A DNA stretch of 64,000 nt, taken from assembly GCA_004321885.1 (NCBI GenBank), contig SCQK01000014.1, forward strand, positions 64,001 to 128,000, written 5' to 3'. The stretch comes from Patescibacteria group bacterium (lineage in GTDB: Bacteria; Patescibacteriota; Patescibacteriia; Magasanikbacterales; GWA2-37-8). Below are positions 2,036 through 62,894 of the stretch, in pieces. Under the pieces are notes generated by a model. It saw nothing but the letters and a program-made list of their open reading frames with translations, had not been told where the DNA came from and did not search any database. A program made the translations under genes and the position numbers. The stretch's first letter is position 1. Each line of letters begins with the position of its first letter.

Positions 2036-2110
2036 TCGGGCTGGCGGGACTTGAACCCGCGGCCTCATGGTCCCGAACCATGCGCGCTACCAACTGCGCT
2101 ACAGCCCGAA
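2036..2110 (-). tRNA. tRNA-Pro(CGG)
   Basis: Manual cloverleaf on the minus strand: acceptor CGGGCUG/CAGCCCG, D-arm GCGC-AGUUGGUA-GCGC, anticodon stem CAUGG/CCAUG, loop UUCGGGA (anticodon CGG), T-arm GCGGG-UUCAAGU-CCCGC, discriminator A. Confidence 0.85.
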
Positions 2111-2117
2111 TTATTAC

Positions 2118-2384
2118 TTATTTCGTTTTGATTAGTTTATCATTAATAATTTTTTCAATATAGTCTCTTCTTTTTAATCTTTTAAGTTTGAGTTCAATTC
2201 GTCTCGCTTCCGTCGTTGTTTCGTAGTGCTGTTTAAATTTTATTATCCATGGGCCTTTATTTTTTGTTGAAGGTGTCTCCCCATTATTGTGTTCAATCAG
2301 CCGGTTTTCCGGATTGTTTGAAGACCCTATATAATACATTCCTGATTTAAGACTTTGCAAGATATAAACGTAAAAACCCTCCAT
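2118..2384 (-). CDS. small GIY-YIG nuclease family protein (COG2827/YhbQ-like)
   Basis: Internal ATG of the ORF-track ORF 2118..2528. MEGFYVYILQSLKSGMYYIGSSNNPENRLIEHNNG carries the GIY..YIG..R..HN motif and a downstream conserved Glu (EARRIE). 88 aa. The stop lies 7 nt before the tRNA-Pro 5' end. Confidence 0.75.
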   Translation of the reverse strand: MEGFYVYILQSLKSGMYYIGSSNNPENRLIEHNNGETPSTKNKGPWIIKFKQHYETTTEARRIELKLKRLKRRDYIEKIINDKLIKTK

Positions 2385-2394
2385 AATTGACTTT

Positions 2395-2462
2395 TTAATA
2401 GAACCCGCGGCCTCCCCGACGTACCGTCGGGGCGCGCTACCAACTGCGCTACAGCCCGATTG
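2395..2462 (-). pseudogene. truncated/degenerate tRNA-Pro-like 5' copy (acceptor 5' strand, D-arm, aberrant anticodon hairpin, variable loop and T-stem 5' strand only)
   Basis: The minus strand reads CGGGCUGUAGCGCAGUUGGUAGCGCGC, identical to tRNA-Pro positions 1-26. Then comes CCCGACGGUACGUCGGGG, a hairpin that is not a valid anticodon arm. AGGCCGCGGGUUC follows and matches the variable loop and T-stem. The T-loop 3' half and the acceptor 3' strand are absent. Confidence 0.6.
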
Positions 2463-2464
2463 TA

Positions 2465-2509
2465 TGGATTCCCGCTTTCCCGCCAAAGGCGGGCAGGCGC
2501 GGGAATGAT
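2465..2509. repeat. family-D palindromic element (CTGGATTCC...GGAATGACA termini) with CCGCCAAAGGCGGGCAGG core
   Basis: The same termini recur at 39467, 40680, 41702, 41817, 50601, 59098, 62862 and 63469. Confidence 0.6.
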
Positions 2510-2610
2510 ACCGACAGTAGGGTATCACGTTTTTTTGCGCTTTTCAAGGGGTAAAATTTGTGATAGAATATGCCCTGTCCGCTGGATTACCAGCGACAGA
2601 TAATTTTTAC

Positions 2611-4361: not shown

Positions 4362-7300
4362 ATGCGAAGAGCGAAAATAATATTTTTCATTATTATCTTC
4401 GCCGCGTTCAGCTCGGCCGCCTTTGGCGGTCGTGTTTTGTCTTTTGACACCAATATCGCTCATCCAAACATCGCGACATTGGCCGTAAAGCTTTACAATG
4501 AGAATTTTGACCCGGATTTAACCGAGGAACAGACGCGTTGGATAGAGCAGGGAGCTGTTGCCGAGGACACGCCCAACCGGTGGTACAACCATTTTTACGA
4601 CCCGGTCTACAATCGTGGCATCTGGTTTGGCAAACAACATTTATCAGCCAAAAATTGGGCTGTTAATCCCCGAGCTCAAACTGGTTTTGCCTTGGGCGAC
4701 AAGAGCTGGCAAAGAGCGCTTGATGATTTTAGAAATAGTGATGAGGAAAAGGCATACAGGGCCCTGGGGCATATTATTCACCTTATTTCAGATATGGCTG
4801 TGCCGGCGCATACCCGAGACGACATTCATCCGCTCGGCGATTCGTTTGAGCAATTTGTGAAAAAGAATTGGGCCAGCGCGACAAAGAATTTGCGCTATGG
4901 AATGATATCTGTATCTGATTTAGATTCAGCTTTTGATTCTGTGGCCAATTATTCAAACAATAATTTTTATAGTGATGATACGATTGAAAATAAAAAATAT
5001 CAGAATCCAGATTTGAATCACATTATACTAAAATATGTGGAAGTTGGAAATGGCATTTCTTATAAATTTTTAGTCAATTCAGTTGGTGGTCAAGAAAGTT
5101 TGCTTTGTAGAACTAATAGCAATAAGAATTGGTTAGACACTCTTGGGGATGACATTCTAAAAGAGTGCAAAGTTGGTGATGATCTCGTTCTCACCGACTA
5201 CTCCCGCCACCTGCTCCCAAAAGCCATCGGTTACAGCGCCGGAATTATTAAACTATTTTTTGACCAAGCCAAGAGTGATAAGGAAGTGGGTAATTTGCCC
5301 GGCAAAAGAACTAGTTTTTCCGGATACCTTGATCAATTTCTTGGTTTCGCTGTCTCGGGAGCGGAAAAATTATACAGCGTGATTAAGATAGCGTTAGGAA
5401 TAGAGCCGGCTTATTCCGAGGGAAGCGCGGAGATTGAGGAACAAGCGCCCTCCCTCCCGCCAGAGGCAGGCAAGCATCAAGGGGAGGGAACGACCACAAC
5501 CACACCAACCACGCCAACCACGACCAACGTCGCGCAGACCACGACCAAACCCAAACCCCCCGCCACCATAAAAAAAGCGGTCGGGAGAAAGACCGGGGCG
5601 TCTGGCGCGCCGGTCGCTGGCTCCATAGTCCCCGACTTAGTCGGGGCTGTGGAGCCCAATGCCAGCACCCTGGCTCCACAGCCTCCTGCGGGGGACAATG
5701 GAGCCAGCCAAGAAGGAACGACGACCACGCCTGTGTATTTTCCTCCATCGTCAAGAGACGGGGGAGCGTATCCGCCAAATACCCCTCCCCTAATAGGGGA
5801 GGGAGATGTTGTGCCTACCACCACCCCGACACCCACCACCACCCCGTCTTCTACAACTACCCCTTCGTCCACCACCACCCCAACCCCCTCCCCCACCACC
5901 ACTCCCACCAGCACTCCGGCTCTGCCACCGCCACCGCTCGTCATCAGCGAAATCGCCTGGGCCGGCACCTCGGCCGCCAGGTCCAACAACGAATGGCTGG
6001 AGCTTTACAACAACTCCACCTCGTCAATAGATTTCACCTCGGGCTGGAAAATTTTTGTTTCCGGCGCCCAGCTCAACATCTCCAATTTTGTTAATCCAGT
6101 CATTTTACCAAAAACATATTACCTGTTGGAACGCACCGACGATTTTACGGTCAAAGAAATTTCCGCGGACGCGATTTACACCGGCGCCCTAAACAATAAT
6201 GGCGCGAAAGTGGAACTCGTCAATCCAAGCGGAGAAACCATAGACACCGTGGACGGCTCCTCGGGCTGGTTCGCGGGTCAGGCCAGTCCCAGTTACGCTA
6301 GTATGGAAAGAAAAGACCTCACCGCCAGCGGTACGAGTCCCGGCAACTGGCAATCCAGCATTGGCGGGCGCGCCACTGGCACGAGCGATGAAATGCCGCC
6401 CAAGCCCATCATGGGCTCGCCCAAACGCCCCAATTTCGGCTACATTGTGCTTACTGGTACCCAAGCCCAAACCACCCGCACACTCACCACAGACAACAGT
6501 CCCTATCTTTTGTGGAGTTACACTATTCCAGCCGGCTTTACATTAAACATCAATCCCGGCGTGGTGATAAAAAGTTACACCCAAAGCGCGGTGATGATTG
6601 TAGATGGGACGCTGAATGTTGGCGGGGGAGACAATAAAGTCATCTTCACCTCGGGCAAAGACCAGTCTTTCACCAGTCCCGACCTCAACCTGATAGACAT
6701 CAATTATCTTTGGACAACTCCCGGGCCGGCTGAAAAAGATTGGCAGGGGCTGTGGTTCAAGCCCGGCTCCCAGGGCAACATCGCCAATACAGAAATCAGA
6801 TACGCGGGCAAAGAGTTTTACCCCACCGGAGGCCCGGCCATGTCCCAGGGCATTCGCGCCGAATCCGGGCTTTCCCTATCAAACTCCACCATCGCCAACT
6901 CCGGCTCCGCGCTTATCTTTCTCCAAAATGCTTCTTCCACCATTACTAACACCAACTTCACCGGCTCCGATCTGGCCATAGAAGCCAACAATTCCCGGCT
7001 CACAATCAACGGCGCGCACTTCACGGGCTTTGGCTCACAGGGCCCTTTGCAAATCAAAGACGCCTGGCCCGAATTTTCCAATCTCACCTACACCACCGGC
7101 ACTGTGCCTTATGCCCGTTTGTACATGGTAAAAACCAGCGCCCCGCAGACCACGGCCAAAAAAGAAATCAATTACCTCTTTGACAACATTGAAGTGGCGT
7201 CTTCCACCACCTTAAACATTGAACCCGGCGCCAACGTCAAAATGACCAACAGCTCCATACTCACGGTCAATGGCGTTCTCAATGCCAATGGCACGCCCAC

Positions 7301-7805
7301 CGACCCCGTCAGTATCGGTCAATTTACCCCGGCCATTCCCAATACTTTATGGGGTTCACTCTACTTCACGGGCAATACTTCCACCATCAAATACACCAAC
7401 ATCTCTGGCGGCGGGCACATACCATCGGGCAGTGGCGTATTCGGCGCCATCACGGCGCAAAATGCCGAAGTCATCATTGAAAACAGCGCCATAAAAAACA
7501 CGGAACAGCCGGGCAATGCCATACAATCCGCCAACGCAGTCATTAGAATAAAGAACAGCGAGATTTCCAATGACACCAAGACGCGCGAAGACCCGCCCGC
7601 GGGCCCGTCGCCTTACAATATCGGGGTCAGCATCGGCGGCGGCAGTCTTCACCTGGACAACACCCTGTTCAAAAATCTCAACATCGGCTTGCAGGGAACA
7701 TACATATCTGGTAGTTTGCCACAGGTGGAGCTGGTCAACATGAATACATCCACTGCGTATTTTCAGAATGTGGGGCGGGTGATGAATCCGTTGGTATGGT
7801 TTTAG
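4362..7805 (+). CDS. large secreted multidomain protein: zinc-dependent phospholipase C / S1-P1 nuclease-like N-domain, Thr/Pro-rich linker, lamin-tail domain (LTD), parallel beta-helix repeats
   Basis: Signal peptide MRRAKIIFFIIIFAAFSSAAFG. HFYDPVYNRG...GHIIHLISDMAVPAHTRDD matches the PLC zinc-ligand pattern. TTTTPTTPTTT and PTPTTTPSSTTTPSS form low-complexity linkers. PPLVISEIAWAGTS...EWLELYNNS...SGWKI carries LTD hallmarks. The C-terminal half is NxT/S-rich beta-helix repeats. 1147 aa. Confidence 0.8.
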   Translation: MRRAKIIFFIIIFAAFSSAAFGGRVLSFDTNIAHPNIATLAVKLYNENFDPDLTEEQTRWIEQGAVAEDTPNRWYNHFYDPVYNRGIWFGKQHLSAKNWAVNPRAQTGFALGDKSWQRALDDFRNSDEEKAYRALGHIIHLISDMAVPAHTRDDIHPLGDSFEQFVKKNWASATKNLRYGMISVSDLDSAFDSVANYSNNNFYSDDTIENKKYQNPDLNHIILKYVEVGNGISYKFLVNSVGGQESLLCRTNSNKNWLDTLGDDILKECKVGDDLVLTDYSRHLLPKAIGYSAGIIKLFFDQAKSDKEVGNLPGKRTSFSGYLDQFLGFAVSGAEKLYSVIKIALGIEPAYSEGSAEIEEQAPSLPPEAGKHQGEGTTTTTPTTPTTTNVAQTTTKPKPPATIKKAVGRKTGASGAPVAGSIVPDLVGAVEPNASTLAPQPPAGDNGASQEGTTTTPVYFPPSSRDGGAYPPNTPPLIGEGDVVPTTTPTPTTTPSSTTTPSSTTTPTPSPTTTPTSTPALPPPPLVISEIAWAGTSAARSNNEWLELYNNSTSSIDFTSGWKIFVSGAQLNISNFVNPVILPKTYYLLERTDDFTVKEISADAIYTGALNNNGAKVELVNPSGETIDTVDGSSGWFAGQASPSYASMERKDLTASGTSPGNWQSSIGGRATGTSDEMPPKPIMGSPKRPNFGYIVLTGTQAQTTRTLTTDNSPYLLWSYTIPAGFTLNINPGVVIKSYTQSAVMIVDGTLNVGGGDNKVIFTSGKDQSFTSPDLNLIDINYLWTTPGPAEKDWQGLWFKPGSQGNIANTEIRYAGKEFYPTGGPAMSQGIRAESGLSLSNSTIANSGSALIFLQNASSTITNTNFTGSDLAIEANNSRLTINGAHFTGFGSQGPLQIKDAWPEFSNLTYTTGTVPYARLYMVKTSAPQTTAKKEINYLFDNIEVASSTTLNIEPGANVKMTNSSILTVNGVLNANGTPTDPVSIGQFTPAIPNTLWGSLYFTGNTSTIKYTNISGGGHIPSGSGVFGAITAQNAEVIIENSAIKNTEQPGNAIQSANAVIRIKNSEISNDTKTREDPPAGPSPYNIGVSIGGGSLHLDNTLFKNLNIGLQGTYISGSLPQVELVNMNTSTAYFQNVGRVMNPLVWF
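5619..5656. repeat. family-C palindromic repeat (GGCTCCATAGTCCCCGACTTAGTCGGGGCTGTGGAGCC) inserted in-frame in CDS
   Basis: Encodes SIVPDLVGAVEP inside the 1147-aa protein. The same unit is in guaA (30514..30551), and the core CCCGACTTAGTCGGG is at 40690 and 50611. Confidence 0.7.
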
Positions 7806-22280: not shown

Positions 22281-22299
22281 TGTGACCCGGCTGGGATTT
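22281..22299 (-). repeat. duplicated 3' end of tRNA-Lys (T-arm 3' strand plus acceptor 3' strand)
   Basis: TGTGACCCGGCTGGGATTT equals bases 22471..22489 at the 3' end of the intact tRNA-Lys, which lies 175 bp away. Confidence 0.6.
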
Positions 22300-22473
22300 G
22301 GCCTCGCCTCTCGCTCGCTTCCGCTCGCTCGGGCTGGCCACCGCCTCGCGGTTTGGCTCGCCCATAAGCTCGCCAAACATCGCTCCGGCGTTCGAATCCC
22401 ACCGCGAGCAAAACTATTTGCTCGCTGCCGGTTCCCAAAATTCAAATCCGCCTAATTGCGGATTTTAATTTTG

Positions 22474-22546
22474 TGACCCGGCTGGGATTCGAACCCAGGA
22501 CCTCTTCCTTAAAAGGGAATTGCTCTACCAACTGAGCTACCGGGCC
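22474..22546 (-). tRNA. tRNA-Lys(UUU)
   Basis: Manual cloverleaf: acceptor GGCCCGG/CCGGGUC, D-arm GCUC-AGUUGGUA-GAGC, anticodon loop CUUUUAA, T-arm CUGGG-UUCGAAU-CCCAG, discriminator A. Confidence 0.85.
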
Positions 22547-29972: not shown

Positions 29973-31802
29973 TTACTCCCACTCAATAGTTCCGGGTGGT
30001 TTGTTGGTGAGGTCGTAGAAGATGAAGTCCACGGCGTTTAGAGCGTGGATTTTTTTGATGATTTTTTTCAGAGTGGGCGAGGGTATGACGCCAAACGAGA
30101 CGGTCATCGCTTCTTCTGATTCCACGGGTCGCAGGACAATTGATTCGCCGTGCTTGTGCCCAAACGGCACGAGCACCGTGGGCATTTGCCAGATTTTTTG
30201 GCATTGCTTGTCGGTCAAAATGGCGCTGTCGGCGATGTCATCTATTTTTCGCAAAAGGTCCAGCCGTTTTTTGGTAAGATACGCTTTTTTCAGCGTGGCT
30301 TTTGGCAATGATTTTTTGTCGCCGGAAACAAGCAGTAGAACGCGGTTGATGTCTTTGTGGGCGTTGGTGATTTTAGGAGAAAGGGATTGATAATACCCCC
30401 ACCCGGCCTCCCCCTTATAAAGGGGGAGGGGACCTGTGATAACGGCGGGGTGGGCGTAGGAGCGCTCGTCGCCTTGCACGCCCACGGATTTGATGGGGAG
30501 ACGCCAAATTGTTGGCTCCACAGCCCCGACTAAGTCGGGGACTATGGAGCCAGCGTCGTTTGATCCTTCCGAGCACAGACAGCGAATGGCCAGGCCCGGG
30601 CCCGGAAAGGGATGGCGGTTTATCAATTTTTGCGGCAGACCGAGCTTAAGGCCGATGGCGCGCACTTCGTCTTTGTACAAATCCTTAATCGGCTCTATGA
30701 TTTTTCCTTCGGCGATCATTTGTTTTATCCGCGGTACGCGATTGTGATGCGTTTTTATGACGTCGGCGTTTTTGGTGCCGCCCGATTCAATAGTGTCGGG
30801 ATAAATGGTGCCTTGGCCGACCAACCATTTGTCTCCGGTCAATTTTTTTCTACCAGACCCGCCTTTGGCGGGTTCGGCCATTACTTTGTCCACAATATCC
30901 AAAAACAAATCGCCGATGATTTTTCTTTTTTGTTCCGGATCAGACACGCCTTTGAGCGCGGATAAAAATTCTTTTTCGGCGTTATACACCCGCAAGTTGT
31001 CTCCCAGTCGCTTCAGAGCCGCTATGATTTTTTTTGTCTCATCCAACCGCATCAGGCCGCTGTCAATGTGCAAGCCGAAAACCCTTTTTTCGCCAAGCAC
31101 TTTTCGCAATAGGGCGAAACAAACCGTGGAATCAACGCCGCCGGAGACGAGCAAGAAAACATTTTTACCGCCCGCTTCCTTTTTTATATTTTTTTCAATT
31201 TGATCCAGCATTGTCTCTGTCGTCCAGTTTTTTTCCGCCCCGCAAATATTTAAAATAAAATTGGCCAGAATTTTTTTTCCTTCTTTCGTGTGATTTACTT
31301 CCGGATGAAACTGAAAGCCGAAGAACTTTTTTGATAAATTTTGCATGGCCGCCACCGAACGGTTGCCGGTTGAAGCGATTGGCGTAAAACCGAACGGCAG
31401 TTTGTCCACGTGATCGCCGTGGCTCATCCAGACAACGGTATTTTTACTTACGCCCGAAAAAATCGGCGAGGCGCTGACGGATAATTTCGCCAAACCGTAT
31501 TCACGCGCCTTGCCCGATTCAACGCGCCCGCCAAAAAAATCTGCCATCAACTGATGCCCGTAGCACAGACCCAAAATCGGCGCGCTGAGCGTAAAAATTT
31601 TTTTATCAAAAGGCAAACGCGCGTCGCGCACCAGCGAACGCGGACCGCCGGAAAGGATGATTCCACACGCGTTTTTCAATCGTTCGGCTTTGACGTTATT
31701 CGGGTAAATACGTGAAATAACGCCCAGTTCGCGCACGCGACGGGCGATGAGATGGGTGTACTGGGAACCGAAATCAAGGATGGCGATTTCACTTTTTGGC
31801 AT
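29973..31802 (-). CDS. guaA: GMP synthase (glutamine-hydrolysing) GuaA with repeat insertions and internal C-terminal duplication
   Basis: GATase MPKSEIAILDFGSQYT...GLCYGHQL. ATP-PPase SGGVDS. C-terminus KPPGTIEWE. ATG at 31800-31802; the 734-aa track ORF over-extends across the guaB start. Inserts at 30395..30425 and 30514..30551. Confidence 0.9.
   Translation of the reverse strand: MPKSEIAILDFGSQYTHLIARRVRELGVISRIYPNNVKAERLKNACGIILSGGPRSLVRDARLPFDKKIFTLSAPILGLCYGHQLMADFFGGRVESGKAREYGLAKLSVSASPIFSGVSKNTVVWMSHGDHVDKLPFGFTPIASTGNRSVAAMQNLSKKFFGFQFHPEVNHTKEGKKILANFILNICGAEKNWTTETMLDQIEKNIKKEAGGKNVFLLVSGGVDSTVCFALLRKVLGEKRVFGLHIDSGLMRLDETKKIIAALKRLGDNLRVYNAEKEFLSALKGVSDPEQKRKIIGDLFLDIVDKVMAEPAKGGSGRKKLTGDKWLVGQGTIYPDTIESGGTKNADVIKTHHNRVPRIKQMIAEGKIIEPIKDLYKDEVRAIGLKLGLPQKLINRHPFPGPGLAIRCLCSEGSNDAGSIVPDLVGAVEPTIWRLPIKSVGVQGDERSYAHPAVITGPLPLYKGEAGWGYYQSLSPKITNAHKDINRVLLLVSGDKKSLPKATLKKAYLTKKRLDLLRKIDDIADSAILTDKQCQKIWQMPTVLVPFGHKHGESIVLRPVESEEAMTVSFGVIPSPTLKKIIKKIHALNAVDFIFYDLTNKPPGTIEWE
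30514..30551. repeat. family-C palindromic repeat in-frame within guaA (encodes SIVPDLVGAVEP)
   Basis: GGCTCCACAGCCCCGACTAAGTCGGGGACTATGGAGCC is the reverse complement of the copy at 5619..5656. Confidence 0.7.
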
Positions 31803-31857
31803 ACTTGCAATAAAATCGGCTATACTATACCATACAACCAATTTACAGCCAATATTT

Positions 31858-33321
31858 ATGCGTGAAACACTTACATTTGATGATGTTTTGCTGGTGCCGC
31901 AGAAGTCCGACGTTCTGCCCAAAGACGCCCATCTGACCAGTTTTTTAACACACGAAATCAAATTGAATTTGCCGTTTTTGAGCGCGCCCATGGACACGGT
32001 CACCGAACACGGTATGGCTATTGCTTTGGCCCTCTCCGGCGGCCTGGGCATTATCCACAAAAATTTGTCTTTGGAACAGCAGGTAGCCGAGGTGCGTTGC
32101 GTAAAAAGATTTGAAAACGGTTTTATAGAAAATCCGGTTACGGTAAAACCGGATGACAAAATTTTGAAAGTTGACAAAATAAAAAGCGAGCTGGGTTTTA
32201 AGAAAGTGCCGGTCTGCGACGAAGGCGGCCGGCTGGTCGGCCTTATTTCCGACGTGGATTATTATATGCCCGACGACGCCGAGGCGCCGGTGCGGGAAAG
32301 AATGCGCCCGCTTGGCGAACTGAAAATCGCGGTGGGTAAAATTGAACTGGACGAAGCCAACAGATTATTGCGGATGTTTCGCCTCAAAACTTTGTGCGTG
32401 GTGGATGAGAGCGGCAAGTTGGCGAGCATTGTCACGCGCAAGGATTTGGAAAAAAATCAAACCTATCCATTGGCCTGCAAGAACAAGCATAAGCAATTGC
32501 GGGTGGGCGCGGCCATTGGCGCCGGCGAGTTTGCTTTGGCGCGGGCCGACGCCCTGGTGGCGGCCGGCGCCGACGCTCTGGTGATAGACACGGCCCACGG
32601 ACACTCCGAGGGCGTTTTGGAAACCCTGCGCCGGGTCAAGCAAAAATATCCTTATCAGCCGGTGCTCGCCGGCAATATCGCCACCGGCGCCGCGGCCAGG
32701 GATTTGATAGAAGCCGGCGCCGACGCTATAAAAGTTGGTATCGGGCCCGGTTCAATCTGTACCACGCGCGTTGTTTCTGGCGTGGGCATGCCCCAGCTCA
32801 CGGCCATTATGGACGTGGCCGAAACCGTCAGGGCCATGGGCAGCCAAACGCCGCTCATTGCCGACGGAGGCATTAAAAATTCCGGCGATATCGTGAAAGC
32901 CCTGGCCGCCGGCGCCAGCTCGGTGATGATGGGCAATATGTTCGCCGGCACCGACGAAGCCCCGGGCCGCGTGGAATTTTTGAACGGGCGCATGTATAAA
33001 GTCTATCGCGGCATGGGCAGTTTGGAAGCGATGGACAGGGGAAGTAAAGACCGCTATGGCCAATGCGATGTCAGCGAAAAAAATAAGCTCGTGCCCGAAG
33101 GCGTCAGCGGCCGCGTGCCGTACAAGGGCCACGTGGCGCGCATTATTTTTCAGCTGGCCGGCGGGGTAAAAAGCGGCATGGGCTACCTGGGGGCGCGCAC
33201 CATTCCAGCACTTCAGCAAAAAGCCGAATTTATAAAAATTTCTTCGTCAGGCGTGCGCGAAAATCATCCGCACGACCTGCTTTCGTTTGACGCGGCGCCC
33301 AACTACCGCGCCGATGAATAG
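31858..33321 (+). CDS. guaB: IMP dehydrogenase GuaB
   Basis: [18 protein letters not shown]-terminus. CBS pair. Catalytic loop [11 protein letters not shown]. Divergent from guaA with a 55-bp spacer. Confidence 0.9.
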
Positions 33322-40679: not shown

Positions 40680-40712
40680 AGTCATTCCCCCGACTTAGTC
40701 GGGGGAATCCAG
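40680..40712. repeat. family-D element with family-C core (GTCATTCCCCCGACTTAGTCGGGGGAATCCAG)
   Basis: Shows the modular relationship between families C and D. A mirror copy is at 50601..50633. Confidence 0.65.
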
Positions 40713-41446: not shown

Positions 41447-41695
41447 TCACATTTCAATATCTTTTCTCATTTCCGCGAATTGCGCTTTGGTTATTTCGCC
41501 TTTGACGTATCTCTCTTTGAGAATGGCGAGCGCGTCGGCGCGCGTTGGGCTAGTTCTGGGCGGTTCGTGGTCGCGGCGCTCGCGCGAACCCTGCACCAGT
41601 GAAACAATACCCCATATCAGCGCCATCCAAAAAAGCAGCATAAACACCGGGCCGATAATTCCGTATCCTCCCCAGTTGGTAAATGGGAACATCAT
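41447..41695 (-). CDS. SHOCT domain-containing small membrane protein
   Basis: TM helix plus C-terminal ILKERYVKGEITKAQFAEMRKDI (SHOCT signature). Confidence 0.6.
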   Translation of the reverse strand: MMFPFTNWGGYGIIGPVFMLLFWMALIWGIVSLVQGSRERRDHEPPRTSPTRADALAILKERYVKGEITKAQFAEMRKDIEM

Positions 41696-41701
41696 AAATT
41701 A

Positions 41702-41736
41702 TTGTCATTCCGGTCGCCTGCGGCGGCCGGAATCCA
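41702..41736. repeat. family-D palindromic element (TGTCATTCCGGTCGCCTGCGGCGGCCGGAATCCAG)
   Basis: Near-identical inverted copy at 59098..59132. Confidence 0.7.
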
Positions 41737-41861
41737 GTTAATTAGCTCATTCTATCTTAACAGATTATAATTTTTTGTCCATAATTGACATTTTCGCTAT
41801 TTTTTTCTATAATAGTTGTCATTCCGGACTTGATCCGGAATCCAGCTCCTTTGAAAATAAA

Positions 41862-41905
41862 TTCCGGGGTAGCGCTCCGCCAGCCGGCGGAGGTAGCGCA
41901 GTTGG
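41862..41905 (+). pseudogene. truncated tRNA-Asn-like 5' fragment with 17-nt hairpin insertion
   Basis: UCCGGGGUAGCGC equals tRNA-Asn positions 1-13. Then the hairpin UCCGCCAGCCGGCGGAG. Then GUAGCGCAG, which matches tRNA-Asn 17-25, before the sequence diverges into the GIY-YIG ORF. Confidence 0.5.
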
Positions 41906-42156
41906 CTGTGTATACTGTTTACGCTATTTACAATCAAAAAAACGATAAAATTTATATTGGACAAACAAAAGACATGGCCGAACGATTAAGGTTGCATAAT
42001 GAAAAAATCCTTCTTGGTTATACTTATAGATTTGATGGAAATTGGAAATTAATTTATAGTGTACAGATCGAGAATAGACAAAAAGCTTTACAAAGAGAGA
42101 GACAACTTAAAAGTTTTAGAGGCAGAGAATTTATAAAACAATTTATTCCGGGGTAG
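41902..42156 (+). CDS. small GIY-YIG nuclease family protein (COG2827/YhbQ-like), TTG/GTG start
   Basis: VYTVYAIYNQKNDKIYIGQTKDMAERLRLHNE (GIY-YIG..R..HN) and a downstream Glu (RERQLK). GGAGGT Shine-Dalgarno sits 7 nt before the TTG at 41902. The stop TAG lies inside the first 10 nt of tRNA-Asn. Confidence 0.65.
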   Translation: MAVYTVYAIYNQKNDKIYIGQTKDMAERLRLHNEKILLGYTYRFDGNWKLIYSVQIENRQKALQRERQLKSFRGREFIKQFIPG

Positions 42157-42218
42157 CGCAGCGGTAGCGCAGAGGACTGTTAATCCTTTGGTCGTGGGTT
42201 CGAATCCCACCCCCGGAG
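42147..42218 (+). tRNA. tRNA-Asn(GUU)
   Basis: Acceptor UCCGGGG/CCCCGGA, D-arm GCGC-AGCGGUA-GCGC, anticodon stem GAGGA/UCCUU with loop CUGUUAA, T-arm GUGGG-UUCGAAU-CCCAC, discriminator G. Confidence 0.85.
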
Positions 42219-42220
42219 CA

Positions 42221-50573: not shown

Positions 50574-50638
50574 CAATAAAAATATTTTTTAATAAATAAA
50601 CTGGATTTTCCCGACTTAGTCGGGGGAATGACAAGTGT

Positions 50639-53515
50639 ATGCCTAAGAGAAAAAAGAGGGATAGACGCGTAAGGTACGCGTTTTTGGCGATAGTTTTGTG
50701 TTTGGCCGCGGGCGGTGCCGGCGCGGCCGTGTATTTAACATCAAAGGCCAGTTCGGCGAATTTTAGCGCGCAAATTTACGGCGCGGTTTCGCCGCGATTA
50801 AACGTTATAGACGTGGATTTTTTGCGCGACAATAATTTGAAGTTCACGCAGGACAAAAAAACCAATTTCGTGCGCTCGCTTTCGGCCCTGGGCCAGCCCA
50901 TTCCTTTAAGCAAAGGAAATTTGGTCAGCGACTTGGCGGTCAGCAATCAATTTTTGAAAGACTACGCGCGCTTTTTCGGAGTGGGCGACAGCAAACAACT
51001 CATACTGCATTCGTCCAAGAAAGACGAGCTGGGGCTAAGTCACATAAAATACCAGCAAAAAATCGGCGGGGTGCCGGTGTTTGGCGCACAGATGCTGGTG
51101 CACGTAAAAGAGGACCTGTCCGTCAATTCAGCGGCCGGCAAACTATTGGCCAATGTTTCCATCAATACCAATCCCAAAATCACGGGGCGCGCGGCCGGCG
51201 ACGCGGTGAAGCGTTCGTGGCAAAAGAGCGACAAGGCGCCCAAAGTTTCGGCGGGCAAGCTGTATATTTTCAACAAGAACCTTTTGGACGCTCGGTTTGA
51301 AAATAAAAATCATCTAACCTGGGAGATAAAGGCCGTGGACGCGGATTCGGGCTTTTCCGAAACCTATTACATAGACGCAACCAGCGGAGCAATTTTGCAG
51401 AAAATTTCCAATGTCAAACAGATTAGCCGTCGGATTTTTAATTGCGGCAACAATCGCAACCGTACTACCTGCCGAAACATGCTGGGCGCCGCGGCCAGCC
51501 GGGCGCAAAACGACCGGGCCGAGGGCTGGGCCGCCGCGGGCGTGGCCGAGGTTGACAACGTCTATCAAATGATGAACCAGGCGCATAATTATTTTCAAAA
51601 CACCTTTGGCATAGACGGCGCCAACGGCCGCGACGGCATTGGCGACAACACCGACGGCCATCCGCGCACCTCCACCGACGTTTATGCTGATTGGCTTATC
51701 CCCGCCAGCTGGGGTTTTAATTGTCCCAATTCTTTCTTTTTCGAAAACAAGCTGATGTTCTGCAACAACACGGTCAATCTGCCGGTGGTGGGACACGAAT
51801 ACATGCACGGCGTGGCGCACTTCAACGGCCCGCCCCTCACTTACGCCTACGAGTCCGGCGCCATTGAAGAGGCCAATGCCGACATCTTTGGCCAGGCCCT
51901 GGAAAATGCCGTGACCGGCTCTTCCAGCTGGCGCATCGGCCCCACTGGCGGAAATCTGTGGCGCAATATCGTCAATCCCGCTTCGCTCAATGACCCGGAC
52001 CGGTTTTACAGCAACAATTTTTATTGCGGAGATAATGACGAGGGCGGGGTGCACAACAATTCCAATGTCATTTCACACGCCGCGTATTTGCTTGCCACCG
52101 GCGGCAGTTTCAACGGCTGTTCCATAGACAGCATCGGCCAAAACAGAATGGAAAGAATTTTCTACCGCGCCCTGACAGTTTACCTCACGGCCAGTTCGGA
52201 TTTCAATGATTTGTACGACGCGCTGGACAATGCCTGCGGCGACCTGTATTCCGACGCGATTTGCGCGCAAGTGCGCCGCGCCTTGCAGGCCGCGGAAATA
52301 GACCAGCCCGGGCGATGCAGCGGCACAGCGGCCGCGCCCAAGCCAACCTGTTTTCCGCCGTATATTCTTTCGGTGTCGGCGAATGCCGGGCATTATCGGG
52401 CCAATCAAAGTATTACATTGAGGTTTAAGTTTTCCAAGCCCGTGCGCACGGCCGGCGCCGTGGATGTGTTCGCGGTCTTAAACGGCCGCACGGCCGAAAA
52501 AATTTGCTCCCTTGATTTGAGCTCGCGCGCCGACGACGTGTCATGCTCGTTTAAGGTAAATGACGGCGACAGCGGCCGTCTGCGCGTGGACAGAATTGAG
52601 TGGGATGTCAAGAGGCCGATTTTGGACGCTGATTCAAGCGAGCTTACCGATATGGTGCCGGCCGAGCAGTTTCCCAAGGGCGACGTGATTATAGACACCG
52701 CCAAGCCAACCGGAAGCGTTACCATCAATAGCGGGGCTAAAACCACGGCCAGCCATATAGTGGAGCTGGCGCTAAGTTCAAACGACGACAAAGCCGGGTT
52801 GCTATACCGCGTTTCCAACAACGGCGTCAGTTACAGCCGTTGGGATGATTTTGCGGCAACGACGTCGTGGAATTTGTACAACGCGGACGCGGGCGGCGGG
52901 GTGTTTCCCACCACCAACAGTGGATATCCGCGCACGGTTTATGTTCAGTTCAAAGACCAGGCCGGCAATGTTTCCGACACGTATTCGGCCAATATCACCT
53001 TTAGCCGGCTGACGATTTTAATAGAAGAGCCGGCGCAACTTGCGGTTCCAACTTCATCACAGCCGAATGGCGCGAATCTCCTACTCAATATTCCCCCCAG
53101 CGCCCTGACCATCCCCGGCGTCAATGTTACAGTTACGCAGACAAGCGCGGTGGTTCTGCCGCAGATTTCCACGACCACTGTCAATTTGAATCCGGCGATT
53201 TCTTCTTCGCTTATTGATGTTGTCAGTGTTCCGGATTTCACGATTTCCGTAAAGCAGGGCGGGCTGACAACATATTTGAGCGGCGCCATAAATTATTGGG
53301 GCAAGGGGGCAAAATGCGAGGGCCCGCGAACTTATGACGCGGTAGTAGCGAACTGGGGCGATGGCGCATCAGCCAAGCCCGCGCGCAAGGATAAAACATT
53401 CTATGCTTCGCATACTTACGCCAAGACCTTTGGCTCGTACAAGATTTTGGTAAAGGTTTACAACAGTTGCGGTGGCAGCGCGAGCAAATCTTTGTACGTA
53501 AAGCCGCAGATATAA
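50639..53515 (+). CDS. M4 family (thermolysin-like) zinc metalloprotease with N-terminal propeptide and C-terminal extension domains
   Basis: HEXXH VVGHEYMHGVAH plus downstream GAIEEANADIFG (third Zn ligand Glu). Signal anchor. 958 aa. Confidence 0.85.
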   Translation: MPKRKKRDRRVRYAFLAIVLCLAAGGAGAAVYLTSKASSANFSAQIYGAVSPRLNVIDVDFLRDNNLKFTQDKKTNFVRSLSALGQPIPLSKGNLVSDLAVSNQFLKDYARFFGVGDSKQLILHSSKKDELGLSHIKYQQKIGGVPVFGAQMLVHVKEDLSVNSAAGKLLANVSINTNPKITGRAAGDAVKRSWQKSDKAPKVSAGKLYIFNKNLLDARFENKNHLTWEIKAVDADSGFSETYYIDATSGAILQKISNVKQISRRIFNCGNNRNRTTCRNMLGAAASRAQNDRAEGWAAAGVAEVDNVYQMMNQAHNYFQNTFGIDGANGRDGIGDNTDGHPRTSTDVYADWLIPASWGFNCPNSFFFENKLMFCNNTVNLPVVGHEYMHGVAHFNGPPLTYAYESGAIEEANADIFGQALENAVTGSSSWRIGPTGGNLWRNIVNPASLNDPDRFYSNNFYCGDNDEGGVHNNSNVISHAAYLLATGGSFNGCSIDSIGQNRMERIFYRALTVYLTASSDFNDLYDALDNACGDLYSDAICAQVRRALQAAEIDQPGRCSGTAAAPKPTCFPPYILSVSANAGHYRANQSITLRFKFSKPVRTAGAVDVFAVLNGRTAEKICSLDLSSRADDVSCSFKVNDGDSGRLRVDRIEWDVKRPILDADSSELTDMVPAEQFPKGDVIIDTAKPTGSVTINSGAKTTASHIVELALSSNDDKAGLLYRVSNNGVSYSRWDDFAATTSWNLYNADAGGGVFPTTNSGYPRTVYVQFKDQAGNVSDTYSANITFSRLTILIEEPAQLAVPTSSQPNGANLLLNIPPSALTIPGVNVTVTQTSAVVLPQISTTTVNLNPAISSSLIDVVSVPDFTISVKQGGLTTYLSGAINYWGKGAKCEGPRTYDAVVANWGDGASAKPARKDKTFYASHTYAKTFGSYKILVKVYNSCGGSASKSLYVKPQI

Positions 53516-54490: not shown

Positions 54491-55093
54491 ATGGTAAATA
54501 TGGTAAAATTGTTGGCGATGGATTCCGGCTCGGGGGCCGGAATGACACGACTGGTTATGTTTGAAAAAATTGTTCAGTTGGATAAATATCTAAATCAGGA
54601 GTTCGTCGGTTCCGGCGGAAAATTTTTGCAGGGATTGGGAATTTTTATTGATTCGGCTTCGGGCATGGTTGTTTTTGGCGTCATCGGCCTAATCGCGGCG
54701 CTGTATTTTTGCAAAACAAAAAAATGGCGCGAGCTGGCCTTGTTTTTCGCGGCCGGGGCCGGCGCGGTTTTTTGGGAATTATTTTTGAAATGGGTTTTTG
54801 GCCGGCCGCGCCCGGGCGCGCTGTCGCCGACCGATGGTTTTAGTTTCCCCAGCGGGCACGCGACTGTTTCCCTGGCTGTCTTTGGCGCTATAATATATTT
54901 GTTTGCTCCGCGCATAAAAAATAAAAATTGGCGCAAGATTTTTATCGGCGCTTGCGCTCTGTTTATTCTTCTCATCGGCGTCAGCCGCGTGTATCTGGGG
55001 GTGCATTGGTTTAGCGATGTAGTGGCCGGCTTTGCTCTCGGTTTAGTTTGGCTTTGGCTGGTAATTTTTGGCTTCAAACGATTTTGGCGATAG
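54491..55093 (+). CDS. PAP2-family phosphatase (undecaprenyl-diphosphatase / phosphatidic acid phosphatase type 2)
   Basis: PAP2 motifs KWVFGRPRP, PSGHAT, SRVYLGVHWFSDVVAG. Confidence 0.75.
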   Translation: MVNMVKLLAMDSGSGAGMTRLVMFEKIVQLDKYLNQEFVGSGGKFLQGLGIFIDSASGMVVFGVIGLIAALYFCKTKKWRELALFFAAGAGAVFWELFLKWVFGRPRPGALSPTDGFSFPSGHATVSLAVFGAIIYLFAPRIKNKNWRKIFIGACALFILLIGVSRVYLGVHWFSDVVAGFALGLVWLWLVIFGFKRFWR

Positions 55094-59097: not shown

Positions 59098-59132
59098 CTG
59101 GATTCCGGTCGCCTGCGACGACCGGAATGACA
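59098..59132. repeat. family-D palindromic element (inverted orientation)
   Basis: CTGGATTCCGGTCGCCTGCGACGACCGGAATGACA. Confidence 0.7.
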
Positions 59133-62861: not shown

Positions 62862-62889
62862 TGTCATTCCCGCGAAAGCGGGAATCCAG
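62862..62889. repeat. family-D palindromic element (TGTCATTCCCGCGAAAGCGGGAATCCAG)
   Basis: Minimal form of family D. Intergenic. Confidence 0.7.
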
Positions 62890-62894
62890 CAAAT

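Follow-up and report, generated by a model that had tools for sequence, protein, structure and literature searches.

Why should the gene of a small nuclease lie wedged between a broken and an intact copy of the same tRNA gene? This question is raised by a 64,000-nucleotide (nt) stretch of a metagenome-assembled Patescibacteria genome (assembly GCA_004321885.1, contig SCQK01000014.1, positions 64,001 to 128,000; hereafter the window), in which the minus strand carries a truncated tRNA-Pro, an open reading frame (ORF) for a GIY-YIG protein of 88 amino acids (aa) and a complete tRNA-Pro(CGG). The original prediction, made from the sequence alone, took this arrangement for the trace of an element that encodes a GIY-YIG protein, inserts into tRNA genes or beside them and duplicates parts of them. 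This view is supported by the linkage of related ORFs to tRNA genes, by empty sites, by ORF-less versions and by disrupted tRNA genes that can be restored in silico. We consider it probable, at roughly 60%, that we are dealing with a copy of a small selfish cassette, guided by hairpins, that resides in tRNA transcription units of Patescibacteria.

Two tRNA-associated nuclease genes in one window

The partial copy of tRNA-Pro predicted upstream of the ORF is real, but it extends over 58 nt instead of 68 (Table 1). Its first 27 positions (2458-2432), not 26 as first counted, are identical to the real tRNA. The anticodon arm is swapped for an 18-nt hairpin, CCCGACGGTACGTCGGGG (2431-2414), followed by AGGCCGCGGGTTC (2413-2401), which is identical to tRNA positions 44-56. 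Nothing is left 3' of the T-loop TTC: the rest of this loop, the 3' T-stem strand and the 3' acceptor strand are all missing. Hence, the original description of a hairpin in place of the anticodon arm, with the variable loop and the 5' strand of the T-stem kept and the 3' parts gone, was accurate. Together with a flanking C and G the hairpin forms an 8-bp stem, and the partial copy folds as single-stranded DNA (ssDNA) into a D-arm and this 8-bp GC hairpin. The ATG of the ORF follows after a spacer of 16 nt, which had been given as 10 nt because the letters tattaa were counted into the fragment. The gap between the stop codon and tRNA-Pro(CGG) is 9 nt, not 7. The assignments of the ORF to the family of GIY-YIG proteins and of the downstream gene to a complete tRNA-Pro(CGG) were borne out by the searches listed in Table 1.

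ARAGORN does not recognize the partial copy as a tRNA, and neither does Rfam even at E ≤ 10, where this fragment and its tRNA-Asn counterpart described below return only spurious miRNA and snoRNA matches. This result argues against the possibility that the partial copy is itself a functional tRNA recognized by covariance models. The exact repeats of 27 nt (Pro) and 13 nt (Asn) are found nowhere else in the window. At the tRNA-Pro locus there is no 3' remnant and no right-hand hairpin, no 3' repeat was found, and the following gene begins 18 nt beyond the tRNA. No recombinase is encoded within 2036-2510. A further hairpin, 7 nt upstream of the partial copy, fits the NTS consensus of Chenal et al. 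2025, to which we return below.

The same architecture recurs at tRNA-Asn, as predicted, with a partial copy, a hairpin, an 82-aa GIY-YIG ORF and an intact tRNA. The design is that of the tRNA-Pro locus, but the hairpin is a different one, and the two proteins are ~26% identical. Here, the partial copy consists of tRNA positions 1-13, the hairpin TCCGCCAGCCGGCGGA (41876-41891) in the D-loop, and then GGTAGCGCAG.. (the rest of the D-arm) to ..CTGT. The last 10 nt of the ORF overlap tRNA-Asn, so that the stop codon lies inside the tRNA. In the following, relatives of the Pro-locus protein are referred to as family 1 and those of the Asn-locus protein as family 2.

The longest ORFs at the two loci, of 136 aa (2118-2528, minus strand) and 123 aa (41785-42156, plus strand), extend upstream across the hairpins and the partial tRNA. 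Similar N-terminal extensions of 20-60 aa are seen in many homologues from databases and are probably annotation artefacts. The cassette may explain such nuisances, since gene callers give spurious, N-terminally extended GIY-YIG ORFs such as that at 2118-2528; the truncated tRNA-like pieces are a further source of annotation confusion.

Table 1. Features of the two cassettes and NTS-like hairpins in the window
Feature	Position	Strand	Basis
NTS-like hairpin ATTCCCGCG..GCGGGAATCC with nested CCCGCC-TTT-GGCGGG hairpin	2466..2506	-	regex match, ssDNA fold
Truncated tRNA-Pro(CGG) copy, 58 nt	2458..2401	-	alignment to real gene
Family-1 cognate hairpin CCCGACG-GTA-CGTCGGG(G)	2414..2431	-	fold; CCGAY..RTCGG motif
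GIY-YIG nuclease gene, 88 aa, single-domain, family 1	2118..2384	-	PF01541, E = 1.9e-15
Intact tRNA-Pro(CGG)	2036..2108	-	ARAGORN; Rfam RF00005, 72.6 bits
NTS-like hairpin upstream of Asn cassette	41707..41735	+	regex match
Second NTS-like hairpin, TATAAT ahead, 20 nt upstream of partial tRNA-Asn	41821..41843	+	regex match
Truncated tRNA-Asn copy, overlapping ORF start	41863..41913	+	alignment
Family-2 cognate hairpin TCCGCC-AGCC-GGCGGA	41876..41891	+	upstream CCGCC type
GIY-YIG nuclease gene, 82 aa, single-domain, family 2, GTG start at 41908	41908..42156	+	PF01541, E = 3.3e-16
Intact tRNA-Asn(GTT)	42147..42219	+	ARAGORN; Rfam, 73.4 bits
Further NTS-like hairpin	40684-40708	+	regex match
Further NTS-like hairpin	50606-50640	-	regex match
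Further NTS-like hairpin	54520-54543	-	regex match
Further NTS-like hairpin	59100-59128	-	regex match
Further NTS-like hairpin	62866-62887	+	regex match

Recurrence, empty sites and nested tRNA genes

One genome per species was scanned for family 1, which yielded 80 loci encoding relatives of the Pro-locus protein (individual loci are cited below by L numbers). A same-strand tRNA gene starting between -30 and +120 nt from the ORF end is present in 66 of these, at a median gap of 10.5 nt, where the background density of tRNA genes would predict about 0.6. The tRNAs concerned are specific for Pro, His, Ala, Val, Thr, Ile, Asn, Arg, Phe, Asp and Gly, and the protein clades partly track the isoacceptor. 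In 38 loci, the first 9 nt of the tRNA are repeated exactly within 200 nt upstream of the ORF (~0.05 expected). Many of the 5' copies are 100% identical to the tRNA in gapped alignment, except for the inserted hairpin block (46/46 positions in L001, 24/24 in L058, 26/26 in L075). Eight loci show the mirror image, with the intact tRNA followed by the ORF, hairpins and a 3' copy (for example 67/67 in L037 and 71/71 in L043). Independent assemblies that show this design number more than 90 and stem from different projects. This architecture is non-random, far beyond what chance would produce. No description of a tRNA-nested GIY-YIG arrangement was found in the literature searched; this tRNA-nested, tRNA-restoring architecture is common in Patescibacteria. 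A -10-like box precedes the partial copy in 20 of the 38 loci, a signal that is not decisive because it covers only this fraction and because the sequence is AT-rich. Elsewhere in L037 (2770-2890), a CCCCGCCG..CGGCGGGG hairpin and then a copy of the tRNA-Met 3' end lie ~100 nt after an intact tRNA-Met with no ORF, which is the mirror-image arrangement in an ORF-less version. About 30 of the 80 fetched loci end at a contig end near the cassette, and the cassette may be the cause.

Family 2 is larger, with 518 homologues of the Asn-locus protein. The source names shown among the best 120 of these are all Patescibacteria or candidate phyla radiation lineages, or unclassified. The 15 loci that were fetched, encoding seven different proteins, all lie at tRNA-Asn(GTT) with the same layout; in L216, hairpin-bearing copies flank the ORF on both sides. 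Three observations concern the tRNA-Asn gene itself. In L210 and L212, and in one JGI contig without available DNA, a large serine recombinase gene (Resolvase/Recombinase/Zn_ribbon) lies immediately 3' of the cassette-bearing tRNA-Asn, where other strains of the L210 and L212 species carry different genes. With a serine recombinase on its 3' side and a GIY-YIG cassette on its 5' side, this tRNA gene is exploited from both sides by different mobile elements. In L012, L024, L067 and L214-L216, the tRNA-Asn after the cassette is interrupted in the anticodon loop, apparently by a group I intron, and is therefore missed by ARAGORN. The partial tRNA-Asn copy ends in ..CTGT both in the window (41905-41913) and in L214/L215, where this is the exact point of interruption of the downstream gene. 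The coincidence hints at a common breakpoint; position 35/36 is a reported group I intron site in Patescibacteria tRNA (PMC13011429).

An element that moves should leave sites with and without it. An exact 52-nt tRNA-Pro pattern gave no match in the metagenome collection. A degenerate tRNA-Pro(CGG) pattern recovered 120 metagenome loci, of which 109 include sufficient upstream sequence, and the ORF is present in only four of these 109. The divergent pilT-like gene beside the window cassette also adjoins tRNA-Pro(CGG) elsewhere (50-77% aa identity) and allows orthologous sites to be compared. The empty tRNA-Pro sites that the original prediction proposed to search for were found within this synteny in L152, L147 and L113, where a promoter-like box is followed by the tRNA ~10 nt on. 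Occupied sites are found in the window and in L005/L144 and L009. A -10-like box stands 9-15 nt ahead of the partial copy in L005 and L009, so the partial copy occupies the position at which the tRNA starts in empty sites. Hairpin-bearing, ORF-less versions occur in L094, L092, L197 and L115, and L201 is similar. L094 has the design of the window locus, with a hairpin for the anticodon arm, then AGGCCGC and an A-rich spacer, and the tRNA directly after, with no ORF. These data show an insertion/deletion polymorphism at an orthologous site, and they support mobility of the cassette.

The same tRNA-Pro(CGG) loci contain other upstream structures. A copy of the first 9 nt of the tRNA occurs upstream in 22 of 105 ORF-less loci, all copy classes taken together (~0.2 expected). 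Ten loci (L082, L104, L111, L121, L124, L130, L140, L145, L154 and L157) share a conserved leader 70-90 nt upstream of the tRNA, and L167 has it at ~30 nt. Here CGGGCTATAT, which copies the 5' end of the tRNA, is paired with ATATAGCCC that comes after it, and these are succeeded by CTCTTCGCTCGG, another hairpin and CTCGCTCAT. The leader is distinct from the GIY-YIG cassette. L111 and L124, which had been taken for decayed cassettes, belong to it, with a 5' copy that pairs with its own complement, and were withdrawn. L089/L173 and L158/L198 have yet another arrangement upstream of the intact tRNA: tRNA-Pro positions 1-19 are copied, and after them come 150-210 nt of GC-rich sequence that seems to be structured and has a second tRNA piece (..ggaagcgcgcttc) at its end.

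Is the intact tRNA the original gene or part of the element? The original prediction had the element partly duplicate tRNA genes; as a refinement, the intact tRNA is cargo in at least some loci. Deletion in silico of the segment from the upstream hairpin through the hairpin after the intact tRNA generates a second tRNA that is recognized by ARAGORN in L011, L034, L063 and L073. The intact and the split tRNA have the same anticodon and different stems, with 50 of 74 (L011), 63 of 76 (L034) and 55 of 74 (L063) positions in common. Within the Pro class, 3' remnants lie downstream of the intact tRNA in L001, L003, L005/L144, L006 and L009. There are two such copies with the same hairpin in L005/L144; the remnant of L009 has a different T-arm, and that of L006 begins at position 57, where the upstream copy stops at 56-58. 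Finally, the 5' fragment of L055 matches the tRNA-Thr of L075 and not its own neighbor. We can conclude that the intact tRNA is cargo and not a local duplicate in at least some loci. Most economically, the unit can be described as an ORF and an intact tRNA with hairpin(s) on either side, set inside a resident tRNA that it disrupts.

Three further structures were noted around intact tRNA genes. In L005 (3259-3380) and L144 (6702-6820), a 19-bp inverted repeat (agttttgttcgtcttgttta ... taaacaagacgaacaaaa) brackets the intact tRNA-Pro inside the cassette; it could be a processing stem or a cargo boundary. On the minus strand of the window (22282-22546), a repeat of the final 17 nt of tRNA-Lys (AATCCCAGCCGGGTCAC) lies 175 nt downstream, and the insert carries a terminator and a T-arm-like tRNA piece on the opposite strand. 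A similar insert of ~110 nt (GGxGGAyTyGAACGyCGGAGCGAT..CGCGAGrCGGTGGyCAG) separates tRNA-Pro from its 3' remnant in L006 (3366-3510). These inserts may represent another small element, with tRNA 3' ends as its target.

The nucleases and their hairpins

The two window proteins are little more than a catalytic domain: PF01541 spans nearly their whole length (88 and 82 aa). The GIY-YIG positions Y18, G20, R28 and E64 are invariant in 35 homologues of the 88-aa protein. The nearest solved structures to the family-1 profile are the UPF0213 proteins 1zg2 and 1ywl, followed by SLX1; I-TevI (1mk0) is a weak match (E = 8.5e-4). NCBIfam gave only a sub-threshold match to TIGR01453 (residues 6-40, 20 bits against a cut-off of 56). 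The sole Pfam matches are GIY-YIG and T5orf172, with no HUH (Y1) transposase. A profile search returned 2,614 representative protein clusters at E ≤ 1e-10.

The hairpins that had appeared aberrant in the single locus turned out to be a conserved, protein-family-specific motif. In family 1, a hairpin of the form (C/T/G)CCGA(C/T)-loop-(G/A)TCGG(G/A/C) lies within 250 nt of the ORF in 75 of 80 loci, and the density of CCGAY..RTCGG is 19-fold higher in this interval (3.4/kb) than elsewhere (0.18/kb). The stems covary: the inner pair is C-G in 172 cases, T-A in 21 and mismatched in nine, and the closing pair is C-G (97), T-A (64) or G-C (20), with Watson-Crick pairing in 182 of 202. The loops are free in sequence, and some hairpins are nested in the loops of others. 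The hairpin of family 2 has the form (C)TCCGCC-NNNN-GGCGGA(G). This CCGCC type is found upstream in 15 of 15 family-2 loci and in four of 80 family-1 loci, whereas the CCGAY type is found upstream in none of the 15 and in 64 of the 80. The position of the hairpins also follows the protein. In the Pro/Ala/Asp/Gly/Arg clade the hairpin substitutes for the anticodon arm, in the Thr/Val/Arg/Asn/Phe/Ile clade a hairpin pair occupies the D-loop, and in the His clade the pair lies ahead of the tRNA fragment. By analogy with the Ssn nucleases described next, the conserved hairpin is probably the recognition element of the nuclease. A process like V(D)J-type joining, which adds palindromes where DNA-hairpin ends are opened, was rejected as the origin of the hairpins since their sequence is conserved and not derived from the flanks.

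Ssn enzymes, the clade cd10448 of CDD, are single-domain GIY-YIG nucleases of ~94 aa that bind a hairpin repeat (NTS, CGTCATTCCCGCGMAVGCGGGAATCYRG, or SRM variants) in ssDNA, cut a few nt from it and are inactive on dsDNA and RNA (PMC11893778). Their genes are typically flanked by repeats, and homologues prefer their own variants (PMC11893778). Judged by this published description, the cassette proteins appear closer to Ssn nucleases than to classical homing endonucleases. In both systems a single GIY-YIG domain makes up a protein of about 90 aa, the layout of hairpin, gene and hairpin is insertion-sequence-like, and homologues are paired with their own hairpin variants. NTS-like hairpins adjoin both window genes. 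However, the cassette hairpins are CCGAY..RTCGG or CCGCC..GGCGG where those of Ssn are ATTCCC..GGGAAT, and they are embedded in truncated tRNA copies with the gene abutting an intact tRNA. Chenal et al. (Nat Commun 2025) mention neither tRNA nor Patescibacteria (PMC11893778).

Eight NTS-like hairpins (TGTCATTCC[CG]G..C[CG]GGAATCCAG), a type known from Neisseria, occur in the window, with at least one upstream of each cassette. The copy at 62863-62890, separate from the cassettes, fits the published consensus at 27 of 28 positions. Most of these hairpins begin 1-4 nt past a TATAAT-like box just upstream of genes, and thus would lie at the 5' ends of transcripts. Those at 40684 and 50606 have a CCGACTTAGTCGG core that joins the two hairpin types. 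The window also contains two copies (5619-5657 and 30514-30551) of a 38-nt palindrome, GGCTCCA(T/C)AG(T)CCCCGACT(T/A)AGTCGGGG(A)CT(G/A)TGGAGCC, inside the long ORFs 4362-7805 (plus strand) and 29973-32177 (minus strand); these resemble in-frame insertions like the Rickettsia palindromic elements.

Seg proteins have a DNA-binding domain at their C-terminus and duplex DNA as their substrate, and they neither split nor duplicate tRNA genes nor come with a cognate hairpin. The cassette proteins, at 82-88 aa, consist of the catalytic domain alone and lack the linker and C-terminal DNA-binding domain (NUMOD or helix-turn-helix) of Seg and I-Tev homing enzymes. As for presence and absence, a hallmark of homing genes, empty, occupied and ORF-less states were all found at pilT-tRNA-Pro(CGG). 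Seg-type genes, such as that of T4 SegB in the tRNA gene cluster (PMC2330249), share with the cassette a place within or beside groups of tRNA genes, polymorphism in presence and absence, and an inheritance that is probably selfish. REP/BIME-RAYT and IS200/IS605 systems likewise combine a small nuclease gene with short GC hairpins that are single, paired or nested, and have more ORF-less than ORF-bearing copies. Their enzymes are HUH proteins with a covalent intermediate as opposed to a GIY-YIG hydrolase, and REP elements do not target tRNA. Islands and prophages that integrate into tRNA genes also disrupt the tRNA, restore its function with a replacement segment and leave a direct tRNA repeat. 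These elements span kilobases, employ tyrosine or serine recombinases and leave the 3' end of the tRNA duplicated, whereas the cassette measures ~0.4 kb, has no recombinase, leaves a 5' remnant (in the window, tRNA positions 1-27 and 44-56) and can carry a whole tRNA.

Group I introns have been described in the same phylum and in the same gene, tRNA-Asn, with HNH endonucleases reported for the Asn introns; the report mentions no GIY-YIG proteins, hairpins or duplications (PMC13011429). There is no ribozyme at the cassette, and the ORF lies outside the functional tRNA. No Rfam intron match was found in the window at the gathering threshold, nor in 2380-2530 and 41690-41930 at E ≤ 10. Both window tRNAs downstream of the ORFs are uninterrupted according to ARAGORN and Rfam. 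A split, permuted or intron-containing tRNA was rejected because the downstream tRNA is complete.

Possible origin and consequences of the cassette

How might such a unit arise and persist? In our reading, a full unit consists of one or two GC hairpins, a single-domain GIY-YIG gene of 80-90 aa, an intact tRNA gene and hairpin(s) again. It is nested in a resident tRNA gene of the same anticodon, of which a 5' remnant is left upstream and a 3' remnant downstream, and the hairpins sit in, or substitute for, the D-loop, anticodon arm or T-arm of these remnants. Since an intact tRNA directly follows the ORF, insertion would cost the host nothing. The tRNA-Pro copy in the window would be the common shortened form, made up of the 5' remnant with hairpin, the ORF and the intact tRNA, because it has no 3' remnant. 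The right end would most simply be lost by recombination of the cargo tRNA with the 3' remnant. Such recombination may be viable only between near-identical tRNAs, which would explain why short forms have identical copies while diverged pairs stay full. The enzymology and insertion mechanism that we infer are as follows. By analogy with Ssn, the nuclease would bind its own hairpin in ssDNA and nick at the junction of tRNA and cassette; the predicted target of the 88-aa protein is ssDNA with CCCGACGGTACGTCGGG in a tRNA context. The nick would stimulate recombination, with the flanking tRNA pieces as conserved homology arms; replication forks or incoming DNA during transformation could be the setting. 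The ORF would be read from the promoter of the tRNA, and cleavage by RNase P at the downstream tRNA would free the message. A more tentative proposal, which we rate well short of even odds, is that the cassette acts as a drive for tRNA-gene replacement. In this scenario the hairpin-guided ssDNA nuclease, equipped with its own tRNA, would knock out the resident gene of the same anticodon and spread between divergent Patescibacteria, probably through transformation DNA, with hairpins lodged in the arms of the resident gene and universally conserved tRNA sequence as portable homology arms. In a yet bolder form of this proposal, the hairpin-bearing tRNA-like transcript would be a cofactor or guide for the nuclease.

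Several points weigh against the selfish hairpin-guided cassette. Its specificity for ssDNA and its binding to hairpins are carried over from Ssn, and CCGAY hairpins cluster at the cassette, whereas NTS repeats are dispersed in hundreds of copies. We know of no strand-transfer activity for hydrolytic GIY-YIG nucleases, which leaves the chemistry of insertion unexplained. No recent transposition was seen, the two window proteins being ~26% identical. The databases searched contain no close relatives of the window species: an exact look-up of the neighboring 200-aa protein returned nothing, and P0001 was found on one further 4-kb contig only. No copy was found on viral contigs (IMG/VR) or plasmids (tblastn against PLSDB), so there is no sign of phage carriage. 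The partial agreement of protein clades with isoacceptors is compatible also with long vertical residence. Finally, at the window locus the cargo model is an extrapolation, because 3' remnant and right-hand hairpin are missing and a local duplication would look alike.

Such a duplication would have occurred if ORF and hairpin entered the resident tRNA-Pro by way of widely staggered breaks or slipped repair, so that positions 1-56 were duplicated; the tRNA now found downstream would then be the original one, and no gene would have been brought in. The identity of the 5' copy to the adjacent tRNA in the window and most short-form loci and the absence of a 3' remnant in the window fit this idea. 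However, it does not explain intact tRNAs between remnants of a different allele (L011, L034, L063, L009) or the L055 copy that matches the tRNA of L075, and the hairpin is found within the duplicated segment instead of at the edge; we consider it unlikely. We are slightly more skeptical of intronless homing by a free-standing endonuclease like T4 SegB, which would cut the duplex tRNA gene and be copied in during repair, the hairpins being incidental, for example as mRNA-stabilizing or immunity-conferring changes in the dead copy. The GIY-YIG fold, presence or absence at a conserved site, the partial correspondence of clades with isoacceptors and the precedent of SegB as a GIY-YIG gene in a tRNA cluster (PMC2330249) speak for such homing. 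Yet a protein that is only a catalytic domain can hardly specify a long duplex target, the occupied locus retains an intact, presumably cleavable tRNA, and conserved, covarying and family-specific hairpins are unexpected of incidental sequence.

A domesticated, non-mobile operon is improbable in our judgment. Here, truncated tRNA and hairpin would form a structured 5' leader for the regulation or stability of a host-beneficial nuclease that is co-expressed with the tRNA, and selection or gene conversion would keep the copies identical. Tight packing at the median gap given above, the -10-like boxes just ahead of the partial copy in several loci and 5' copies that stay identical to the tRNA despite ~50% protein divergence are consistent with such an operon. 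It is hard to reconcile with the patchy distribution at orthologous sites, down to four of 109 similar tRNA-Pro loci, and SsnA does not bind RNA (PMC11893778). Moreover, ORF-less derivatives, nested hairpins and mosaic remnants resemble decay and turnover. We can nearly eliminate the attachment-site scar of an integrase-mediated island and an assembly artefact. Although tRNA genes are classical integration sites, and serine-recombinase elements do lie 3' of the same tRNA-Asn in L210 and L212, the ~420-nt unit encodes no integrase, and what it duplicates is the tRNA's 5' rather than its 3' end. The recurrence of the design in assemblies from separate projects speaks against an artefact.

If the hairpin-guided selfish cassette is the correct reading, these loci form a natural library of matched nuclease-hairpin pairs, with at least two types in this window alone, that would be useful for sequence-specific ssDNA cutting tools. 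The finding would add a tRNA-embedded lifestyle to the Ssn-type hairpin/nuclease systems. It would also provide a mechanism by which the reduced genomes of Patescibacteria turn over their tRNA genes and have them replaced horizontally. If, beyond that, the cassette does act as a replacement drive, tRNA genes of Patescibacteria would be exchanged horizontally as the cargo of a selfish element.

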